From the NCBI GenBank assembly GCA_036676985.1, contig JAKFBU010000019.1, forward strand, positions 1 to 64,000: 64,000 nt of DNA, in the 5' to 3' direction. Under the pieces are notes generated by a model that was not told where the DNA came from, did no database searches, and saw only the letters and a list, made by a program, of their open reading frames with translations. Below are positions 5,068 to 41,831 of the stretch, piece after piece (position 1 is the stretch's first letter; every line of letters starts with the position of its first letter). The position numbers and the translations under genes are program-made. The stretch is from Candidatus Sericytochromatia bacterium. GTDB taxonomy: Bacteria; Cyanobacteriota; Sericytochromatia; S15B-MN24; UBA4093.

Positions 5068-6093
5068 TTAAGGCGTCGCGGCGCCGTCGGTGCCGCGCGG
5101 CAGGGGACCGGTGGGGCGGCGGGCAGGAGCCAGGTTCGGCAGGCGTACCAGGAGCTGGTCACCGGAGTGCAGGGAGCTGTTGCCCGCCGCGAGCTGCTCG
5201 CGGTAGCGCTCCACCGAGAAGTCGAGGAAGTTGGCCGGATCCTGGTTGATGATCTGGAAGTAGGCGTCGTGCATCATCATCTTGCCGACGAGCAGATCGT
5301 GGCCCAGGCAGAGCATGTAGTTGGCGGCGTCCGGCGCGATGAGGGGCGGCGGATCGATGGGCGTCTCCGGCGTGTAGGTGAGCACCAGCTCGTTGCGCTC
5401 GAGCGCCACCGCCGTGGGACGGCCGACGGCCTTGGGCGCCGGGAAGATCTCGGCCGGATCGATCGTGATCTGGTTGCCCCGGACCCGGAAGGGGCCGTCG
5501 TGGGGCAGATCCATCAGGCCCTCGAGGTCCAGCTTGAAGAGCTTGATCATACCCCCGATGCCGACCTCGGAGACGGCGATCCGGTGCGGCAGCAGCTCCA
5601 TGAAGCCGCCGGGACCGACGCTCACCTCGCTCTCGAGGGTGATGGGCAGATCGAAGCCCATCTTGTGGACCTTGCCGCGCAGGACTAGGCGATCGCCCAC
5701 GATCGAGAGCCGCGCCTCCCGGAGGGGATGTCCCGCCGCGGGCAGGACGTAGCGGTTCAGGAGGGCCTCCAGGCTGGGGGCCGACAGGCGGATCTGACCC
5801 TGCCGGATGGCGAAGACGTAGGAGTCCTTGAGCTCGGGGATGAGCGGGCGATCCGGATCCTTGACCTGCAGGTCCGCAACGAAGTCCCGGAGCTTCAGGA
5901 CGACGGCGTCATCGAAGAACAGACGCGCGTTCTGGGCCCAGACGCGCATGGCGCCGGGTGCGATCTCGGCGAGCGCCTGCTCCTCGGCAGTGGCCCGCTT
6001 CTGGGTGATGAGCGTCCGCCCGAAGGCCTGGACGAACGCCGACAGGATCTGCGCCTGGGTTTTGATGCGGCGCGGAAAGGACTTCTGTTGCAT
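5068..6093 (-). CDS. hypothetical protein (possible LmeA/DUF2993-like beta-rich lipid-binding fold)
   Basis: long ORF with host codon bias; fold guess is weak. Confidence 0.6.
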   Translation of the reverse strand: MQQKSFPRRIKTQAQILSAFVQAFGRTLITQKRATAEEQALAEIAPGAMRVWAQNARLFFDDAVVLKLRDFVADLQVKDPDRPLIPELKDSYVFAIRQGQIRLSAPSLEALLNRYVLPAAGHPLREARLSIVGDRLVLRGKVHKMGFDLPITLESEVSVGPGGFMELLPHRIAVSEVGIGGMIKLFKLDLEGLMDLPHDGPFRVRGNQITIDPAEIFPAPKAVGRPTAVALERNELVLTYTPETPIDPPPLIAPDAANYMLCLGHDLLVGKMMMHDAYFQIINQDPANFLDFSVERYREQLAAGNSSLHSGDQLLVRLPNLAPARRPTGPLPRGTDGAATP

Positions 6094-6188
6094 GGGTGCA
6101 TGATAGCAGAGGCGGCGCGCACCCCTCGTGCCGGGCATCACGCGGCGAGGCGCGACTCGTGAGCATTCCAGGCAGCCGGTCGTTGGCC

Positions 6189-17956: not shown

Positions 17957-18364
17957 ATGAACACGCAAACCGACCTCATCACCGGAGAGCGGACCTACAC
18001 GCTCACCGTCGACTCCTTGACCATCTCGCTCTTCGGCCGCGCCAAGGGCGAGGTGCGCCTCACGTGCACGCCCGAGGGTCAGTTGACGGCTTTCGAGGCC
18101 GTGGCCCATCCGGCGCCCTTCCTGGTCCGCCAGAAGGCCGAGACCATCGCGGAGGCCGCCACATGGGACCTGCCCGCCTCCGAGCTGAACGCCGTCCCCG
18201 ACAACAGCCGGATCATCGTGCGCCTCACGCTCGGGGACAAGGCCCTCGCGGGTCTCCAGACGACCTCCGTCTTCGCCGCCGAGGACGTCGTCGCCCTCAT
18301 CGAGCGCGCCCAGGACGAGCCGCCGGGCGCCTGGCAGGTGGAAGACATCGAGGTCGAGATCTAG
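17957..18364 (+). CDS. small acidic hypothetical protein
   Basis: ORF between the 625-aa gene and the methyltransferase; its stop abuts the next start. Confidence 0.75.
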   Translation: MNTQTDLITGERTYTLTVDSLTISLFGRAKGEVRLTCTPEGQLTAFEAVAHPAPFLVRQKAETIAEAATWDLPASELNAVPDNSRIIVRLTLGDKALAGLQTTSVFAAEDVVALIERAQDEPPGAWQVEDIEVEI

Positions 18365-20629
18365 GTGGCAAGCTCCCCCCGGCGCTCGCGCCCCCAGGAA
18401 GACCCCAAGCAACAGGCCCTCCGCCAGGGCGTCTCCATGCTCTCCGAAGCCATCGCGAGCACCGAGGAGACCGCCGGCTGCTACGTGCTCGCCGAGGCGC
18501 TCTTCAGCTGGCTTCGGGACCACGGCGATCGCACCGCCCTCCAGCATGCCGTGACCGAGGCGCTGTCGAGCCTCGGGGGCGATCGCATCCCCCTCTTCGC
18601 CGACCTGGCGCCCCTGCCTCTGCGGGTGGGCGCCCCCTCGGTCGACGAGCTGACCGACCGGCTCGCGGCCCTCTTCGCGGCGGTCGAGTGGAGCTACGAG
18701 GACGGCGAGCTCCTGGGCGCCCTCTTCGAGACCCACCTCAACCCGGTCCAGCGCAAGAAGCACGGGGCCTTCTACACCCCGCGGCCCATCGTGGACTACC
18801 TGCTCGACGCGACCCTGCCCGACCAGCACCTGCCCCTGTCCAAGACCTTCCGGCTCCTGGACCCCTCGTGCGGCGCGGGTAACTTCCTGTCGGCTGCGCT
18901 CGAGGCGCTCTTCGATCGGGTCTGGACCCCCCAGACGGGCTCCGAGGGCCGCTACCTGCGCCTCAAGCGCGTGATGGAGCAGCACCTGTACGGCCTGGAC
19001 CTCAACCCGTGGGCGATCCGGCTCGCGCAGATCCGCCTCAACTTCGTCCAGCTCAAGCTCGTCCCCGAGCTCAAGCGCCCCCTGAAGGCCCACCTCCTGG
19101 GCCGCAACACGCTGCAGGATCACGACCCCCGGCTCGAGGCCGGCTTCGACGTGATCGTGGGCAACCCGCCCTACGGCGCCGAGATCTCGGATCAGGACAA
19201 GCGCTTCTTCCAGCGGCACTACCGCCTGGGCAACGGGCGCCAGGAGACGACGGCCCTCTTCATCGAGCGCTCGGCTCAGCTCCTCAAGCCCAAGGGCCGC
19301 CTGGGCCTGGTGGTGCCCCACGGCATCACGCGCACGGGTGCCTACGCCGAGTGCCGTCGCCTCCTGGTCGAGGACATGCGCCTAACAGCCCTCCTGGACC
19401 TCGGCAGCGCCTTTCCGGGCGTCAACCTCGAGACCATGGCTTTTGTCGCCGAGCACCACCGCACTGTTCGAAAGGCCGGCCAGCTGCCCTGGGCGCCGGA
19501 CGATCGGGCTGAGGTTCGGCTGGATACCTTCCGGGACGGCGAGATGCGCCACGTGGGGACGCAGCTGCACGGCTTCTACCGCCAGCGGGCGACCATGCCC
19601 ATCTACGTGGACCAGCACAACGGCGGCTGGATCGGCAAGGTCGAGGCCCTGGGCGTGCCCCTGCAGGACATTGCGGCCATCCGGCGCGGCGCGGGCATCT
19701 CGGCGCGGGAGGATGCGATCGCCCTGCGCGAGGACGGCATTCCCGTCGTGCGCGGGCGGGACATCCGCCGCTACGGGGCGGACTGCGGCCCCATGCGCCT
19801 GCACCCGCACTACCCGTTGCGCGATCGCTTCCGGCGCGACGTCCTGGAGGCGCCGCGCATCGGCTACCAGAACATCGCGAGCGCGGTGGTCGCGACCATG
19901 TTGCCCGCGGGCTCCATGCCCCTGGACACGGTAAACGTGCTGGAGCCCCAGGCCGATTGGGACGAGGGCTACATGCTGGGCCTTTTGAACTCGCGCCTGA
20001 TGGAGGCCTACTTCCAGCTCGTCATCGCCAACAAGGCGCAGCTCACGCTGCACCTGGACACGCCGACGCTCGGCACCCTGCCCATCCTGTTGCCGAGCCA
20101 GGCCGAGCAGCGCTCCATCGCCGCGGAGGTCCGCAAGGTGCTCGACGACATGTCGGGCGCCTCCACATGGGAGCTGGCGCTGACCTTGGAGGCGAACTAC
20201 TGGGAGACGCCGGAGGCGTTGCAGGCGGCGGCCCGGGACCTGAGCCTGGACATGGACAGCCGCCGCAAGCGTGCCGCGGCGCGGCTCGCCGAGATCGACA
20301 CGCGACTCATGGAGCTCTATGGGCTCACGGAGGCCGAGATGGAACTGGTGCGGGCGGAGACGCCGCACTCGACCCGCAAGCCGCCCAAGGAGCTCGCCAA
20401 GGCCGCGGAGATCGTCGTCGCTCGTGGTCTCTTGCGCCTCCTGGACAAGTCCCAGGCCTCGCGCGAGGCAGTGGACCTGTGGCGCCACTGGGCGCGGCCT
20501 GATGCCGAGGTCTGGCTCGAAGCCTGGGGCGGCGAGCTGGACGAGCTTCCGGAGTTGCTCGGGAAGTACGGCGGGGTGCTGCACGGGCGTCGGCTCGGCA
20601 TGTGGCAGCCGGGGTTGCAGCCGGTTTAA
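18365..20629 (+). CDS. N6-adenine DNA methyltransferase, gamma class (Eco57I/TaqI-like) with C-terminal target-recognition domain
   Basis: GAFYTP, LDPSCGAGNFL (motif I), GNPPY (motif IV), LGLLNSRL TaqI-C-like segment. Confidence 0.9.
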   Translation: MASSPRRSRPQEDPKQQALRQGVSMLSEAIASTEETAGCYVLAEALFSWLRDHGDRTALQHAVTEALSSLGGDRIPLFADLAPLPLRVGAPSVDELTDRLAALFAAVEWSYEDGELLGALFETHLNPVQRKKHGAFYTPRPIVDYLLDATLPDQHLPLSKTFRLLDPSCGAGNFLSAALEALFDRVWTPQTGSEGRYLRLKRVMEQHLYGLDLNPWAIRLAQIRLNFVQLKLVPELKRPLKAHLLGRNTLQDHDPRLEAGFDVIVGNPPYGAEISDQDKRFFQRHYRLGNGRQETTALFIERSAQLLKPKGRLGLVVPHGITRTGAYAECRRLLVEDMRLTALLDLGSAFPGVNLETMAFVAEHHRTVRKAGQLPWAPDDRAEVRLDTFRDGEMRHVGTQLHGFYRQRATMPIYVDQHNGGWIGKVEALGVPLQDIAAIRRGAGISAREDAIALREDGIPVVRGRDIRRYGADCGPMRLHPHYPLRDRFRRDVLEAPRIGYQNIASAVVATMLPAGSMPLDTVNVLEPQADWDEGYMLGLLNSRLMEAYFQLVIANKAQLTLHLDTPTLGTLPILLPSQAEQRSIAAEVRKVLDDMSGASTWELALTLEANYWETPEALQAAARDLSLDMDSRRKRAAARLAEIDTRLMELYGLTEAEMELVRAETPHSTRKPPKELAKAAEIVVARGLLRLLDKSQASREAVDLWRHWARPDAEVWLEAWGGELDELPELLGKYGGVLHGRRLGMWQPGLQPV

Positions 20630-20905: not shown

Positions 20906-21628
20906 TTATTGCGCCGGCATGTTCACGAACGCCACGCCCGGATCCAGCCGGAACGTGCCGCCCGGAAGATAGCTCAGCCCCTTCACCAGGGCCGCGTTCT
21001 TGGGCCCTTCCTTGTCGAGCATGGCGACGATCTGCTCGCGGGCCTTCTTCTTGAGGTCGCCGCCGAACAGCTTCGCGAGCCAGCTGGAGGTGGTGGCCTT
21101 CACCGTGTCCTCCGGCTGCGTGATCCACATGATGCCGAACGGATCGATCCGCACGTCGAAGTCGAACGACAGATTGATGTTCTGTCCCTGCTCCACGACC
21201 GTGCCCAGCACGCGGACCCGGTTGCCCACACGGCTCGCTTGCAGGCCCTGCGGCAGCCCGCCCTTGACGTTCTTGAGCAGCTCCGTGGCCACCGTGTCGA
21301 TGGCCTGGCGGCGCAGCTTGTCGCGCTCGGCCTCGATGGTGGGATCGGGCGCGCCGTTGCCCATGAACCGCGACGACAGGTAGTCGTCGATGATCTGGGC
21401 CGCCGCCTGGGGATGGTTGAGCTTGATCCACAGCACGAAGGGATTCTTGCTGATGTCGTCCGAGGCCCCCGCAGCGGCGGGAGCCGGAGAAGACGCCTTG
21501 TACTGCTGGGAAGGTGTCGACTGGACGGGCTTCTTGACGGCCGTGGGCGCACCACCGCAACCGATCAGCATCATGCCGGCCAACATCGCGAGGCTCAGTT
21601 GTAAATAGCGATGGTCCCTGCGCGGCAT
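20906..21628 (-). CDS. hypothetical lipoprotein
   Basis: lipobox MLIGC; host codon bias. Confidence 0.8.
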   Translation of the reverse strand: MPRRDHRYLQLSLAMLAGMMLIGCGGAPTAVKKPVQSTPSQQYKASSPAPAAAGASDDISKNPFVLWIKLNHPQAAAQIIDDYLSSRFMGNGAPDPTIEAERDKLRRQAIDTVATELLKNVKGGLPQGLQASRVGNRVRVLGTVVEQGQNINLSFDFDVRIDPFGIMWITQPEDTVKATTSSWLAKLFGGDLKKKAREQIVAMLDKEGPKNAALVKGLSYLPGGTFRLDPGVAFVNMPAQ

Positions 21629-21728
21629 ACGCTCCCCCCTGTCCACTTCTTCCAGGGTTATGGGACGGACGCGCCGAAAACTTAGTAAAGCTCAGTTTAA
21701 GAACGGCTTAATTTTAGAACACCGCCCC

Positions 21729-22640
21729 CTAGACGGGGACGGTGACGATCCGGTTGCGACCCGTGCGCTTGGCCTCATAGAGCAGCTGGTCGGCACGGTC
21801 CAGCAGGTCCGCCGGGCTGTCCTCGGCCATGGCCTCGGTGGCCCCGACGCTCACCGTGATGCAGACGGTCTCGTCGGGGGCGGTGAAGGGGTGCTTGGCG
21901 AGCTCCGCGCGCACCCGCTCGGCCTGCAGCACCGCCTCGTCGAGCCGGCGGCCGGGAAGGATGTACAGGAACTCCTCGCCGCCGTAGCGACCGATGACGT
22001 CCTGGCGCCGCGAGGTGTGCCGCAGCACGCTCGCCATCTCCTGGAGGACGCGATCGCCCACCGCATGCCCCCAGCGGTCGTTGATGCCCTTGAAGCGATC
22101 CACGTCGAAGAGCAGCACCGAGAGGGGATGGCCGTGGGCGCGCGCCCCCATGAGGGCCTCCGTGAGGGCGGTGTCGAGAAACCGACGGTTGGGCAGGCCC
22201 GTCAGGTGGTCGTGATAGGCGAGCTCCCACAGGCAATCCCGCTCGCGGCGCAGCACGGCCTCGCGCTGGAGGCGGGTGCGCAGCAGATCGAGGCGGGCAT
22301 GCAGCTCCGCCGGGGTCTCCGGCTGCACCCACACGTCGTCGGCCTCGGTTTGCCGGGTCCGCAGGTAGGCCTCCTCGTAGCTCCGCTCGATGAGCACGAC
22401 GGGCACGGGCGGCATGCTGGCGAGGCCCTTGAGGATGCGGCACACCTCGCCGCCGTTGAGGCCGGCGAGCTCGGCATCGGCCAGGATGAGGGCGGGCGGG
22501 TTGCGCGTGGCCTGATCCAGGGCGACAAGACCGTTGGTCGCTTTGACCACGCGGTAGCCCGTCCCCGAAAGCTCCGCCGCGATCCACTCGCTGGGGGCCT
22601 CCGAGGCATAGATCACTGTGGATTGCGTGGCATCCGTCAT
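21729..22640 (-). CDS. response-regulator receiver + GGDEF diguanylate cyclase
   Basis: degenerate REC domain (LILAD), DHLTGLPNRR, RRQD I-site, RYGGEEF. Confidence 0.92.
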   Translation of the reverse strand: MTDATQSTVIYASEAPSEWIAAELSGTGYRVVKATNGLVALDQATRNPPALILADAELAGLNGGEVCRILKGLASMPPVPVVLIERSYEEAYLRTRQTEADDVWVQPETPAELHARLDLLRTRLQREAVLRRERDCLWELAYHDHLTGLPNRRFLDTALTEALMGARAHGHPLSVLLFDVDRFKGINDRWGHAVGDRVLQEMASVLRHTSRRQDVIGRYGGEEFLYILPGRRLDEAVLQAERVRAELAKHPFTAPDETVCITVSVGATEAMAEDSPADLLDRADQLLYEAKRTGRNRIVTVPV

Positions 22641-22803
22641 GATGTCGAGACTCCTCTTCGGCATCGTGCCCCATGGGCGGGCGCCCGTAACGAGGCAAGC
22701 GAGCCGCCCGCGCGCGTTTCCGCCCCTCCCGGCCGGCATGCGACACGGAAAGGCCCCCTGCTCTTGACGAGCAGGGGGCCGAGCAGGTTCCGGGGCTTGT
22801 GGC

Positions 22804-23586
22804 CTAGCGGGCCTTGAGCTTGGCGAGGCGCGCGAGCGACTCGGCGTCGGCGACCTTGGCGCGGGGCTTCAGCTCGACGACCGGGGCCGCCACCTCGGCG
22901 ATCGCCGTGCGCTTGGCGCGGGCCTTCTTGGGCGCCGCCGGCTTGGCGACGGCCTTGGGAGCCTTCTTCGCCACCGGCTTGGTGATGGGCACGGGCTGCT
23001 TGGCGACCTTGGCAACCTTGGCGGGCTTGACCGGAGCGACCTTCTCGGCGACCGGCTTCACGACCACCTTGGCCGCGGGCTTCTTGGCGGCCTTCTTGGC
23101 GGCGGCGCGCTTGGCCTTGCGCAGGTCCTTGGGCCACACCTTGAGGCCGTAGGTGCCATCCGCCACCCACTCGAAGGGCGAGTCGGCGTTGCGCTGCATG
23201 TCGTCGCCCACGCGGGCCCGCAGCGTGTAGGCCGGGGTCTTGCCCTCGGGACGGATGAGGCCGGCGCGGATGGCGCGGCGAGTGATCTCCTGGTAGTGCA
23301 GGGGCTTGCCGGCCAGCGTCAGGACCTTGAGCGCGGCTTCGCGCATGCTCATCGGGTGCTCGAGGATCTTCGAGGCCTTGATCTGCCAGGTGTGCGGCGC
23401 CGTCTGCTCGAAGCTCGAGTTCGGGTTCTGCGAGGCGCGCTTCAGCACCACGCCGATCGAGCGCTCGGGCTGCTTGGATCTCGGGGCGATCAGGCCCTTT
23501 CGGAGCGCACGGGCCACGATCTCGGCCTCCGTAAGCGGCTTGCGGGCTTCAGCCAGAATCAGGTGGGCGGCTTCGAGATAGGTCAT
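22804..23586 (-). CDS. tandem HARE-HTH (HB1/ASXL/restriction-endonuclease winged HTH) protein with histone-H1-like Lys/Ala/Pro tail
   Basis: two repeats MTYLEAAHLILAEARKPLTEAEIVARALRKGLI / MSMREAALKVLTLAGKPLHYQEITRRAIRAGLI..GKTP; tail AAKKAAKKPAAK. Confidence 0.85.
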   Translation of the reverse strand: MTYLEAAHLILAEARKPLTEAEIVARALRKGLIAPRSKQPERSIGVVLKRASQNPNSSFEQTAPHTWQIKASKILEHPMSMREAALKVLTLAGKPLHYQEITRRAIRAGLIRPEGKTPAYTLRARVGDDMQRNADSPFEWVADGTYGLKVWPKDLRKAKRAAAKKAAKKPAAKVVVKPVAEKVAPVKPAKVAKVAKQPVPITKPVAKKAPKAVAKPAAPKKARAKRTAIAEVAAPVVELKPRAKVADAESLARLAKLKAR

Positions 23587-23608
23587 TTCATGTCCCTCTT
23601 GTCGGGTC

Positions 23609-23870
23609 GATCTTAAGGGCGATCGATCGTTCAAACGCTTCCTATTCCTATTCTACCCCCAGATCGATCGCCTGTAAGCCCCTTTTGGCAAAGATTTTCG
23701 GCCGATCGGCGCAAACGCAGCGATCATGATCACTTTCGGCCCTCAAAAATTTTCAAATGATCGCCATGCCTGGGTTTGCGCCCCTTCAGTCGATCCGAAC
23801 CCTGATCTGCCCTGGATCCGAGCCCCCTCACTCGATCATGGGGCGATCGCCCCGGATCCGCCCTCCGATC
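23609..23870. promoter_or_regulatory. GATC cluster (16 sites) in a divergent promoter region
   Basis: GATC at 23609, 23621, 23625, 23662, 23666, 23704, 23722, 23728, 23759, 23792, 23804, 23815, 23834, 23845, 23855, 23867. Confidence 0.8.
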
Positions 23871-23914
23871 CCCGTCCAAAATGGCCGGAACCCGCCTCCC
23901 ACTTGGGAGTTCGG

Positions 23915-23942
23915 TTGACAAGCAACCCAACAGGGTTACAAT
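23915..23942 (+). promoter_or_regulatory. sigma70-type promoter
   Basis: TTGACA-N16-TACAAT. Confidence 0.65.
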
Positions 23943-24007
23943 AACTGGAGGACAGATTGGGCAAGTCGGCGCACGTCGTCTCCACTAGCCCGCGAAAGGA
24001 GATGCCC

Positions 24008-25192
24008 GTGGCGTACTCGCTCGCCTCCCGTACTTCCCGACTACACGGCTCGGCGATCCGCGAGCTGCTCAAGATCACCCAGCAGCCCGAGGTCATCTCG
24101 CTGGCGGGCGGCTTCCCCGCTCCCGAGCTGTTCCCCATCGACGCCCTCCAGAAGGCGAGCGAGACGGTGTTCCGCACGCACGGGCCGTCGGCCCTGCAGT
24201 ACGGCCCGACCGAGGGCGTGGGCGCCCTGCGCGCCCGGATCGCGGCGACCCAGCCGTTCCGCGTGCTGCCGGAGCAGGTGCTCGTCACCACAGGCTCCCA
24301 GCAGGGCCTGTTCCTGATCTCCCAGATCATGCTCGACCCAGGCGACTACGTGGTCGTCGAGTCGCCCACCTACCTGGGGGCCCTCCAGACCTTCGACGCC
24401 CATCAGGCCGAGTACCTGATCGTGGAGTCGGATATTAAGGGCGTCATCCCCGAGTCCCTCGAGGAGGTCCTCGCCAACGCCCCCAAGAAGCCCAAGTTCA
24501 TCTACCTGATCCCCAACCACCAGAACCCCTCGGGCCGCACCCTGGACGCGGTGCGCCGGTCGCAGGTGGTCGAGATCGCCGAGCGGCACGACGTGCTCAT
24601 CGTCGAGGACGATCCGTACGGCCCGCTGACCTTCATGGGCCACCTGCCGCCGCCCCTGCGCGCGTTCAGCGACACCCACGTGGTCTACCTGGGCTCCTTC
24701 TCCAAGGTCTTCGCGCCCAGCCTGCGCGTCGGCTACGCGATCCCGCCCTCCCGGCTCTTCAAGTACATGGTGCAGCTCAAGCAGACCACCGACCTCCAGA
24801 CGGGCAACCTCTGCCAGCTCCTGGCGCTCGAGACCTTCGCGGAGCTCGACTTCGACGCCCACCTGGAGCGCCTGCGCGCGACCTACGGCCACCGCTGCGA
24901 GTCCATGATGGCCGCGCTCGCGGCCCACTTCCCCGCGGGCACCACCTGGACCAACCCGACGGGCGGCATGTTCGTCTGGGTGCAGCTCGACAGCGACGTG
25001 GACACCCAGCAGCTGCTGGATCGCGCGGTCGAGCACAAGGTGGCCTTCGTGCCGGGCGCTCCCTTCTGCATCGACGGCAAGGGTCAGAACGCGCTGCGCC
25101 TCAACTTCTCGAACGTGGCTCCCGCCATCATCGAGGAGGGCGTCCAGCGCCTCGCAGGCCTGGTCAAGGCGGCCGTCGCCGCCACCGTCTAG
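24008..25192 (+). CDS. PLP-dependent class I/II aminotransferase (LysN/2-aminoadipate transaminase-like)
   Basis: SAIRELLK, ISLAGGFP, QNPSG, EDDPY, GSFSKVFAPSLRVG. Confidence 0.92.
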   Translation: MAYSLASRTSRLHGSAIRELLKITQQPEVISLAGGFPAPELFPIDALQKASETVFRTHGPSALQYGPTEGVGALRARIAATQPFRVLPEQVLVTTGSQQGLFLISQIMLDPGDYVVVESPTYLGALQTFDAHQAEYLIVESDIKGVIPESLEEVLANAPKKPKFIYLIPNHQNPSGRTLDAVRRSQVVEIAERHDVLIVEDDPYGPLTFMGHLPPPLRAFSDTHVVYLGSFSKVFAPSLRVGYAIPPSRLFKYMVQLKQTTDLQTGNLCQLLALETFAELDFDAHLERLRATYGHRCESMMAALAAHFPAGTTWTNPTGGMFVWVQLDSDVDTQQLLDRAVEHKVAFVPGAPFCIDGKGQNALRLNFSNVAPAIIEEGVQRLAGLVKAAVAATV

Positions 25193-40322: not shown

Positions 40323-41831
40323 ATGACACAAGCCACCCAAACCGACGTCATGGAGAAGATCGTTTCCCTGAGCAAGCGCCGCGGGTTCATCTTCCAGAGC
40401 TCCGAGATCTATGGCGGTCTCGGCAGCACGTGGGACTACGGCCCCATCGGCGTCCTGTTGAAGAACAACGTCAAGCAGGCCTGGTGGCGTGCCGTCGTGC
40501 AGGAGCGCCCCGACGTGGTCGGCCTCGACGCCGCCATCCTGATGCACCCGGAGGCCTGGAAGGCCTCGGGCCACCTGGAGACCTTCCACGATCCCCTGGT
40601 CGACTGCAAGCAGTGCAAGCAGCGCTTCCGCGCCGACCACCTAATCGAGGCCGTCGCCAAGACCCACCAGTCGGGCGAGAAGACCTCCAAGCTCGTCAAG
40701 AAGGGCGCCGAGGGCTTCGCCGCCGAGCTCACCACCTACCTGTCCGAGCATGCCATCGAGGAGATGCTCAAGGACAAGGAAAAGGTGCAGTGGGCGCTCG
40801 GCAACATGCTCTGCCCCAACTGCGGGTCCAACGAGCTGACCGAGCCGCGCAACTTCAACCTCATGTTCAAGACGTTCATGGGCCCGGTCGAGGACTCGGC
40901 CGCGGTGATCTACCTGCGTCCCGAGACGGCGCAGGGCATCTTCGTGAACTTCAAGAACGTCCAGACGGCCATGCGCAAGAAGCCGCCCTTCGGCATCGCG
41001 CAGATCGGCAAGAGCTTCCGCAACGAGATCACGCCCGGCAACTTCACCTTCCGGACGCGCGAGTTCGAGCAGATGGAAATCGAGTACTTCTGCCCGCCCA
41101 ACGAGTCCGAGAAGTGGTTCGACGAGTGGGTCGCCGCCCGCTGGAAGTGGTACACGGACCTCGGCATGAAGGCCGAGAACCTCCGCAAGCGCGGCCAGGG
41201 CGCCGACGAGCTCGCCCACTACTCCAAGGGCTGCTTCGACATCGAGTACCGCTTCCCGTTCGGCTGGTCGGAGCTCGAGGGCATCGCCAACCGCACGGAC
41301 TACGACCTCAAGCGTCACGAGGAGTTCTCGGGCAAGGACCTGAAGTACTTCGACGAGGAGACGCGCGAGTCGTACGTGCCCTACGTCATCGAGCCCTCGG
41401 CGGGCGCGGACCGCGCCACGCTGGCCTTTTTGGTCGACGCCTACGACGAGGAGACGGACGAGAAGGGCGAGACCCGCGTGGTCCTGCGCTTCCACCCGTC
41501 CCTGGCCCCCGTCAAGGTGGCGGTGCTGCCGCTCTCCAAGAAGCCCGAGCTCAAGGGCCCGTCGCAGGCCATCTTCGCGGCCCTGCGCGAGCGCTGGTTC
41601 GTCGAGTACGACGAGACGGGCTCCATCGGCAAGCGCTATCGCCGCCAGGACGAGATCGGCACGCCCTACTGCGTGACGATCGACTTCGACAGCCTCGAGG
41701 ACAAGGCCGTCACGGTGCGCGAGCGCGACTCCATGACCCAGGTGCGCCTCAAGATCGAGGAGCTGATCCCGTACCTCGAGAGCCGCCTCAACCCGGCCAA
41801 GCAGGGCCTGGAAGCCGCCGTCTTCGGGTAG
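40323..41831 (+). CDS. glyQS: glycine--tRNA ligase, homodimeric (alpha2) type
   Basis: [47 protein letters not shown]. Confidence 0.96.

Follow-up and report, generated by a model that had tools for sequence, protein, structure and literature searches.

The stretch of DNA considered here, referred to as the window, is contig C19:1-64000 of genome G000, which belongs to Candidatus Sericytochromatia, the non-photosynthetic sister class of the cyanobacteria (4.68 Mb in 79 contigs, 67.3% G+C, 100% complete by markers). Its minus strand carries, at 22804..23586, a gene for a protein in which two tandem HARE-HTH domains precede a long basic tail. The locus unites the strongest GATC cluster of the genome, which lies upstream of this gene, a nuclease-free module of the reader type on a histone-like tail, and a conserved orphan adenine methylase, and the HARE-HTH gene is a candidate for a methylation-controlled chromatin protein in an uncultured soil bacterium. 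To our knowledge, no protein has been found to read Dam-type GATC methylation in cyanobacteria.

The Tandem HARE-HTH Gene and Its Product

The gene appears in the list of open reading frames (ORFs) with a length of 783 nt, an ATG at 23586 and a stop codon at 22804-22806, and encodes 260 amino acids; the start, MTYLEAA, is identical at all 10 of the 10 orthologue loci examined. Comparison with Pfam assigned the product to the HARE-HTH family PF05066 over two stretches (106.4 bits, E 1e-30, cut-off 25.9). A six-frame search of the genome located domain 1 (residues 1-68; 23383..23586, minus strand) with 47.8 bits and domain 2 (residues 79-151; 23134..23352, minus strand) with 63.8 bits over the full profile (1-71); the two share 39% identity (E 5e-12). 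The remainder is a tail rich in Lys, Ala, Pro and Val (residues 157-260; 22807..23118, minus strand), delimited by composition and matching no Pfam family. Its 104 residues comprise 25 Lys, 31 Ala, 12 Pro and 15 Val (80% K/A/P/V), with a net charge of +26 and an isoelectric point of 11.3. At its C-terminal end is a motif (residues about 233-260; 22807-22890, minus strand) that the basic-tail lineages of the family alignment (A2) all conserve.

The Pfam scan of the 260-residue protein at E <= 0.01 revealed no second family besides PF05066; neither the nuclease domain Mrr_cat (PF04471) nor the SeqA domain (PF03925) nor a globular linker-histone winged helix was detected, and a scan against NCBIfam gave no match. 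The winged-helix fold of the HARE-HTH domains is assigned from Pfam alone, and among solved structures, DpnI included, no chain was matched by the family profile (E <= 1) or by domain 2 (E <= 10) beyond chance-level matches to TFIIE and a transporter. Pfam and composition together agree with an earlier note on this DNA, which had described two HARE-HTH repeats, an H1-like tail of about 100 residues and no nuclease. The product is most likely a lineage-restricted, very basic DNA-binding protein of the nucleoid-associated kind, and its HARE-HTH domains would be DNA-reading modules of the type found in Mrr-type restriction enzymes, present in this case with no nuclease attached.

Directly after the stop codon lies a terminator-like hairpin (22752..22780, minus strand; RNA fold -35.6 kcal/mol, z -3.1), which the consensus terminator scan did not call because its T-run is short. 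Given this GC hairpin with its 12-pair stem, the gene is probably monocistronic.

Several known proteins share the general plan of a folded module joined to a charged, low-complexity segment. The delta subunit RpoE of Firmicutes combines a HARE-HTH domain with a charged disordered tail and acts on RNA polymerase. The protein described here repeats this layout, its folded HARE-HTH part leading into a long, charged tail of low complexity, and PF05066 also matches in the control genomes of Bacillus subtilis and Lactococcus lactis, so the protein might act mainly on RNA polymerase rather than on chromatin, its activity being unrelated to the GATC sites upstream. Delta, however, has a single N-terminal HARE-HTH domain and a polyanionic tail, whereas this protein has two such domains and a strongly basic tail, and its closest sequence relatives are restriction-enzyme modules rather than delta; a delta-like role is very unlikely. 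With linker histones H1/H5 the protein has in common a long Lys/Ala/Pro-rich basic C-terminal tail, a likeness of composition only. Streptomyces DdbA, for which an H1-like DNA-binding domain and association with the nucleoid are described (PMC3643593), likewise joins a Lys/Ala/Pro-rich basic region to an unrelated folded module, but here the partner is a tandem HARE-HTH unit and the tail is C-terminal, and this resemblance too is compositional only.

A Dense GATC Array over the Predicted Promoter

Upstream of the gene, 16 GATC sites lie within 262 bp (23609..23870), starting at 23609, 23621, 23625, 23662, 23666, 23704, 23722, 23728, 23759, 23792, 23804, 23815, 23834, 23845, 23855 and 23867. 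Two pairs form GATCGATC doublets (23621/23625 and 23662/23666), and the distal seven sites are spaced by 12, 11, 19, 11, 10 and 12 bp; a count of the sites reproduced the number, the doublets and the distal spacings given in the earlier note. The array is the top outlier of the 4.68-Mb genome, which contains 33,755 GATC sites, or 7.2 per kb. When site-anchored windows of 262 bp were compared genome-wide, a comparison that the earlier note had proposed, the 16 sites at this locus were the maximum and the best other loci held 10. Intergenic DNA carries no general enrichment, since GATC occurs 6.3 times per kb in non-coding and 7.4 times per kb in coding sequence, as divided by a crude gene mask based on G+C at third codon positions (83% coding). 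Among intergenic regions the array ranks first, followed by a region with 7 sites in 203 bp.

The array extends over the predicted promoter. A consensus promoter scan returned exactly two promoter-like sites against 0.1 expected, and the sigma-70-type promoter predicted for the HARE-HTH gene (23650..23678, minus strand) matches the consensus at 9 of 12 positions (-35 CTTACA, 17-nt spacer, -10 TAGAAT). The predicted 5' untranslated region (5'UTR) contains three of the GATC sites and the promoter spacer two; another four occur at about -61 to -116, and the remaining seven make up the distal part (23792-23870). One GATCGATC doublet is inside the 17-nt spacer and the other in the predicted 5'UTR. 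A repeat search found that a 17-nt inverted repeat (arms 23612-23628 and 23662-23678, 88% complementary) flanks the -10 element and the predicted start site, with one doublet as the core of each arm, and that a 28-nt imperfect palindrome (23708..23782, 75% complementary) has an A/T tract at its centre and lies upstream of the promoter.

Two further features claimed for the array in the earlier note held only in part. GATC sites do continue into the coding region, where the first 156 codons contain 7, but simulation from the amino acids and codon usage gives a mean of 5.7 (P = 0.29), so the amino acid sequence explains them and they carry no signal. At 10.5 bp, the distal seven sites, a subset picked by eye after the fact, do lie towards one helical face (resultant 0.89, P about 0.001 compared with randomly placed sites); all 16 sites give a resultant of 0.53 at 10.75 bp (P about 0.02). 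The distal array also contains direct repeats of 27 nt (D1, 42 bp apart) and 16 nt (D5, 63 bp apart), and the distal phasing is partly explained by them, because the duplicated units are whole numbers of helical turns.

Other identities for the array were considered and rejected. A repeat or mobile element is not indicated, as the array was unique in the genome by blastn and contained no tandem repeat by TRF. It is not a replication origin: no DnaA box occurs in 23587-24010 even when two mismatches are allowed, in agreement with the earlier note, and oriC lies elsewhere, on contig C7. A search for known RNA families in Rfam gave only a chance-level microRNA match (E 0.19), and the predicted fold of the 5'UTR was not significant (z -1.0). 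No extended operator motif common to the 16 sites was found beyond GATC with its usual C/G flanks.

Distribution of the Protein and Conservation of the Array

Orthologues of the HARE-HTH protein are present in all nine genomes of the same bacterial family (9/9) and in none of the 31 further genomes from the order and class. Among 5.8 billion proteins searched, 35 relatives were found, every one unnamed or hypothetical; an exhaustive search of 1.84 billion cluster representatives returned only three orthologous clusters, followed by multi-HARE-HTH proteins, and a metagenome scan contributed four full orthologue loci. The homologue P0019 matched only HARE-HTH and Mrr clusters in the ESM Atlas, with scores below 0.9. 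The statement of the earlier note that HARE-HTH domains usually accompany restriction endonucleases is borne out by the nearest non-orthologous relatives, which carry the Mrr_cat nuclease in seven of nine cases checked. These Mrr-type endonucleases have 2 to 7 tandem HARE-HTH copies and are 37-50% identical per domain to the protein described here, which differs from them in having a basic tail in place of Mrr_cat. A role as a defence system was considered and rejected, since PADLOC gave no match to the protein and no phage homologue was found; the gene has been inherited vertically within one family and lies in DNA of normal GC content, not in a defence island.

The family alignment (A2) splits in two. 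Genera g1, to which the window belongs, g3 and g4 and a metagenomic lineage (L034) have the basic tail and the C-terminal motif, while genus g2 stands apart. The g2 proteins (P0021-P0034) have a short tail with a conserved cysteine cluster (CxCC ... CGNC), possibly a zinc ribbon, and in their genomes the GATC array upstream of the gene and the linkage to the methylase described below are likewise missing. The HARE domains, recognition-helix regions included, are nearly unchanged in array-free g2.

Conservation of the array was assessed by counting GATC sites in the 520 bp 5' of each orthologue gene (450 bp for L034). The window has 18 sites, with the densest 16 in 262 bp, and its sister genome in g1 has 16, with the densest 14 in about 250 bp. 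L034 has 12, and the g4 promoters have 12 and 10, with the densest 8 in about 155 bp, which ties for the top in a 337-kb background sample. The counts are 4 to 9 in g3 and 2 to 7, without a cluster, in g2. Orthologue promoters thus retain the array in part, as it appears strong in the genus and in one metagenomic lineage, moderate in g4 and absent in g2.

Three sites (-145, -38 and -26 relative to the ATG) are invariant in the five aligned promoters (5/5), and seven of the eight proximal sites are present in at least three of the other four; the proximal sites persist across three lineages. The distal sites are genus- or strain-specific and vary even within the genus. Soil and groundwater runs supplied contigs of related strains; among the 21 substitutions listed from them for 23587-23870, none falls on the 64 GATC bases, where about 4.7 would be expected, and indels do reach the most distal GATC sites.

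The features surrounding the sites bear on a different explanation, in which the GATCs are parts of palindromic operators for an ordinary sequence-specific regulator, maybe this protein, and methylation is irrelevant. The 17-nt inverted repeat around the -10 element and start site and the 28-nt palindrome upstream are the kind of sequence that such a regulator would bind. The inverted-repeat arrangement is discernible in g4 (alignment A3), both arms of the palindrome are kept in L034 and partly in g4, and the -10 element is kept in g1, g4, L034 and g2. Whole blocks, beyond the tetramers, are conserved in g1, L034 and g4, and the GATC columns show no clear excess of constraint over their flanks, so the high GATC count could be a side effect of operators containing CGATCG or GATCGATC, together with local duplication. 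The palindromes, however, account for only about 7 of the 16 sites, no extended consensus joins the 16, and site positions shift between g1/g4 and g3 while some enrichment persists. Operators of this kind are a doubtful explanation of the array as a whole.

The L034 promoter, which belongs to an orthologue 73% identical to the protein of the window, also contains at about 1445-1453 a perfect 9-letter DnaA-box consensus in place of a GATC-containing block of the window.

Adenine Methylation and the Replication Origin

A Dam-like methylase, for which the earlier note had suggested a search, is encoded on contig C39 of G000 (TIGR00571, 311.5 bits, cut-off 114.85). Its score under the E. coli equivalog model is below the cut-off (184.5 versus 441), and its GATC specificity is for that reason taken from its family. 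No recognisable partner gene stands beside it, which makes it an orphan, and D12-class methylases occur in 39 of the 41 genomes of the class that were sampled. Because the Dam-family methylase is conserved and orphan, the sites of the array are probably methylated. A search of the whole genome found no DpnII, SeqA (PF03925) or MutH, which makes it plausible that GATC is methylated with no known reader present; likewise, no C5-cytosine methylase (PF00145) was found. In cyanobacteria, the Dam-like enzyme of Synechocystis is described as methylating GATC and as essential, its gene having resisted deletion, and Dam is reported to be essential in Anabaena as well (PMC6105098).

A second adenine methylase, not mentioned in the earlier note, is linked to the HARE-HTH gene. 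This orphan gamma-class N6-adenine DNA methylase of 754 amino acids (18365..20629, plus strand; Pfam N6_Mtase, Eco57I and TaqI_C) is single-copy in all nine genomes of the family. Its distance from the HARE gene is 116-123 bp in g3, where the two are convergent, about 1.1 kb in g4 and 2.2 kb in the window, so the linkage holds in three of the four genera; in g2 the two genes are on separate contigs. The methylase is also present in eight of eight genomes of a sister family, in none of which the HARE protein was detected, and its older context consists of a small upstream ORF and thrS. No reader-like gene took the place of the HARE gene beside the methylase in the sister family (f4), where the gap contains unrelated ORFs, and at such shallow phylogenetic depth the conserved gene order can also reflect simple inheritance.

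The replication origin of G000 lies directly downstream of dnaA (contig C7:40467-41150), with 12 DnaA boxes (at most one mismatch) in 400 bp, among them all four perfect DnaA boxes of the genome. It includes a GATC subcluster of 6 sites in 114 bp (40780-40893), a density that 36 loci reach, 8 of them non-coding. The coding sequence of dnaA ranks third of 2009 genes in raw GATC density, and, given its amino acids, holds 23 sites against 12.8 expected (z 2.85, rank 60 of 2928). These counts give a modest indication that GATC clusters have a part in replication here. The second-ranked GATC cluster, also on C7, was rejected as an origin feature, since it sits inside a coding region.

The octamer GCGATCGC, the cyanobacterial HIP1 palindrome, is the commonest octamer in G000 with 2737 copies, the next palindrome having 1079; one copy in the window is at 23843-23850. 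A literature search joining Sericytochromatia with HIP1 found no paper.

A Possible Reader of Methylated GATC

The earlier note had proposed that the HARE-HTH protein is a SeqA-like reader that recognises methylated GATC, binds the array at its own promoter and autoregulates, and binding might extend to the GATC cluster of oriC; the protein would then be a SeqA analogue or a methylation-reading linker histone. The parallel with the SeqA/Dam system is that an organism with Dam has a dense GATC cluster at a promoter and a smaller one in oriC, and that part of the sites are helically phased. SeqA is described as following hemimethylated GATC, with synthetic GATC clusters acting as strong binding sites (PMC3384311). 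The present system differs in that no SeqA homologue or domain was found and that the cluster lies on the gene of the candidate reader itself. In favour of such a reader, the genome in which no SeqA was found has an orphan Dam and a GATC cluster in oriC, and the closest non-orthologous relatives, HARE-HTH arrays on Mrr_cat, belong to a family that includes modification-dependent enzymes. An orphan N6-adenine methylase is a neighbour of the HARE gene, and in the same bacterial family a g2 genome encodes a type I-like adenine methylase (HsdM_N and N6_Mtase) with a fused HARE-HTH domain (L012:1438-3237, plus strand, = G005 contig C125). This fusion fits the association of HARE-HTH with adenine methylases cited by Kweon et al., according to whom such associations had led to the proposal that HARE-HTH reads N6-methyladenine (6mA; PMC6591016). 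The two domains could also pair one-to-one with the GATC doublets.

The evidence from ASXL1, a eukaryotic protein with a different role that has the same Pfam domain and an adjoining lysine-rich segment, cuts both ways. Its HARE-HTH domain is reported to favour 6mA DNA in pull-downs with a different sequence context, but in the experiments described in that source it did not bind 6mA within GATC (PMC6591016). HARE-HTH is further said to have an extra helix relative to DpnI-type sensors and possibly to sense cytosine marks, in a source that presents 6mA sensing as debated for the related RAMA domain (PMC11037411). Sequence similarity to solved chains, DpnI included, was absent at the thresholds given above; the recognition-helix regions are almost the same in g2, which has no array; and the linked methylase is not Dam, so the mark that is read could be another motif. 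The SeqA-like proposal therefore keeps the outlier array, the Dam homologue and the Mrr-type relatives on its side, and loses ground on SeqA homology, on the partial conservation of the array and on the GATC result for ASXL1. That the protein itself reads methyl-GATC is a possible but doubtful suggestion. A fuller version, in which a restriction-enzyme reader module lost its nuclease, gained an H1-like tail, reads adenine methylation by Dam and/or the gamma-class methylase, and nucleates on GATC clusters, both that of its own promoter and that of oriC, is unlikely.

A Proposed Nucleoid-Type Protein under a Methylation-Sensitive Promoter

The reading favoured here, with a probability of roughly 45%, is that the locus encodes a nucleoid-type protein under a Dam-sensitive promoter. 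The HARE-HTH gene would be transcribed as a single unit from the sigma-70-type promoter, whose spacer, together with the 5'UTR and about 220 bp upstream, is packed with GATC sites, and the methylation state of these sites would set promoter activity. The cluster could be fully methylated at rest, hemimethylated behind the replication fork, or locally shielded by a bound protein. Output of the chromatin protein would then track the replication or epigenetic state of the cell, in the manner of the GATC-rich dnaA promoter and oriC of E. coli. We infer that methylation alters transcription of the gene, and the naming of a protein that reads the array is likewise conjecture. The favoured reading and the one in which the HARE-HTH protein is the reader are mutually compatible, differing in who reads the array.

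Several observations weigh against a promoter under Dam control. Somewhere in the genome, 25 other tetramers, mostly homopolymeric or AT-rich, show local clusters more extreme than the array by a naive Poisson tail (about 1e-10 for the array), and the hyper-abundance of GCGATCGC means that a bias to GATC-containing words exists. The distal, phased part of the array is genus-specific and is partly local duplication. In g3 the promoter ranks no higher than roughly the top 2% of windows (307-kb sample), and g2 lacks the array, though both genera keep the gene and the D12 methylase. GATC columns are conserved at 0.64-0.88 against 0.50-0.82 for the other columns of a promoter that is itself well conserved (Fisher P 0.03-0.29), a difference that reaches P = 0.03 in only one of four comparisons.

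Some of the same observations would be expected if the array were functionless, a by-product of a process that enriches GCGATCGC and related words, together with short duplications in a divergent intergenic region that evolves fast. The great number of GCGATCGC copies, the direct repeats D1 and D5, the variation of distal sites within the genus and the extreme clusters of other tetramers all fit such an origin. Against it, the full GCGATCGC is present at only 1 of the 16 sites and the flanks resemble those of ordinary GATC sites (CGATCG at 5 of 16, against 17% genome-wide); no other intergenic region is comparable, and the proximal sites persist in three lineages. A functionless array is accordingly quite unlikely.

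The hypothesis of a Dam-sensitive promoter, together with that of a reader, would couple adenine methylation to the chromatin or replication cycle outside the gamma-proteobacteria. If true, the locus could provide the first methyl-GATC reader in the cyanobacterial lineage, a SeqA analogue of independent origin, as well as a replication-coupled control resembling that of histone genes and a case in which a module of restriction enzymes has been recruited to housekeeping. If the protein proves not to be a reader, it would still be a bacterial nucleoid protein of new domain architecture, restricted to a single uncultured family.

Neighbouring Genes and Further Observations

The intergenic region with the array is shared with a divergent aminotransferase gene (23957/24002-25192, plus strand; Pfam Aminotran_1_2), whose predicted promoter (23915..23942, plus strand; TTGACA, 16 nt, TACAAT) matches the consensus at 11 of 12 positions; this neighbour is conserved in the same genus only. 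Directly downstream of the HARE gene, between it and the methylase, is a response-regulator/GGDEF gene (21729..22637, minus strand; Pfam GGDEF and Response_reg), which stays downstream in g4 and L034. An ORF of 246 amino acids between the methylase and the GGDEF gene (20906-21646, minus strand) has a lipoprotein-like N-terminus and matches no Pfam family. On the other side of the methylase, an ORF of 135 amino acids (17957-18364, plus strand), also without a Pfam family, abuts the methylase start; its position is kept in g3 and g2, with 21-28% identity and a common N-terminal motif.

G000 contains a second HARE-HTH gene, for a protein of 510 amino acids (L018:196-1728, minus strand, = contig C28 at about 22.2-23.8 kb). 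Its surroundings have only 44% G+C, and Pfam names HARE-HTH only, the remainder of the protein resembling a Nudix-type box and a P-loop by eye.

A sister-genus record, L019, is titled Stenomitos sp., a cyanobacterium, whereas the relatives L021-L024 are titled Candidatus Sericytochromatia; since the marker-complete G000 has no photosystem reaction-centre gene, the title of L019 looks like a mislabel. Among the 2009 genes with a length of 900 nt or more, the one at 5068-6141 of the window (minus strand) has the highest raw GATC density, 17.7 per kb; once its amino acids are allowed for, only a small excess is left (19 versus 12.5 sites, z 1.9).

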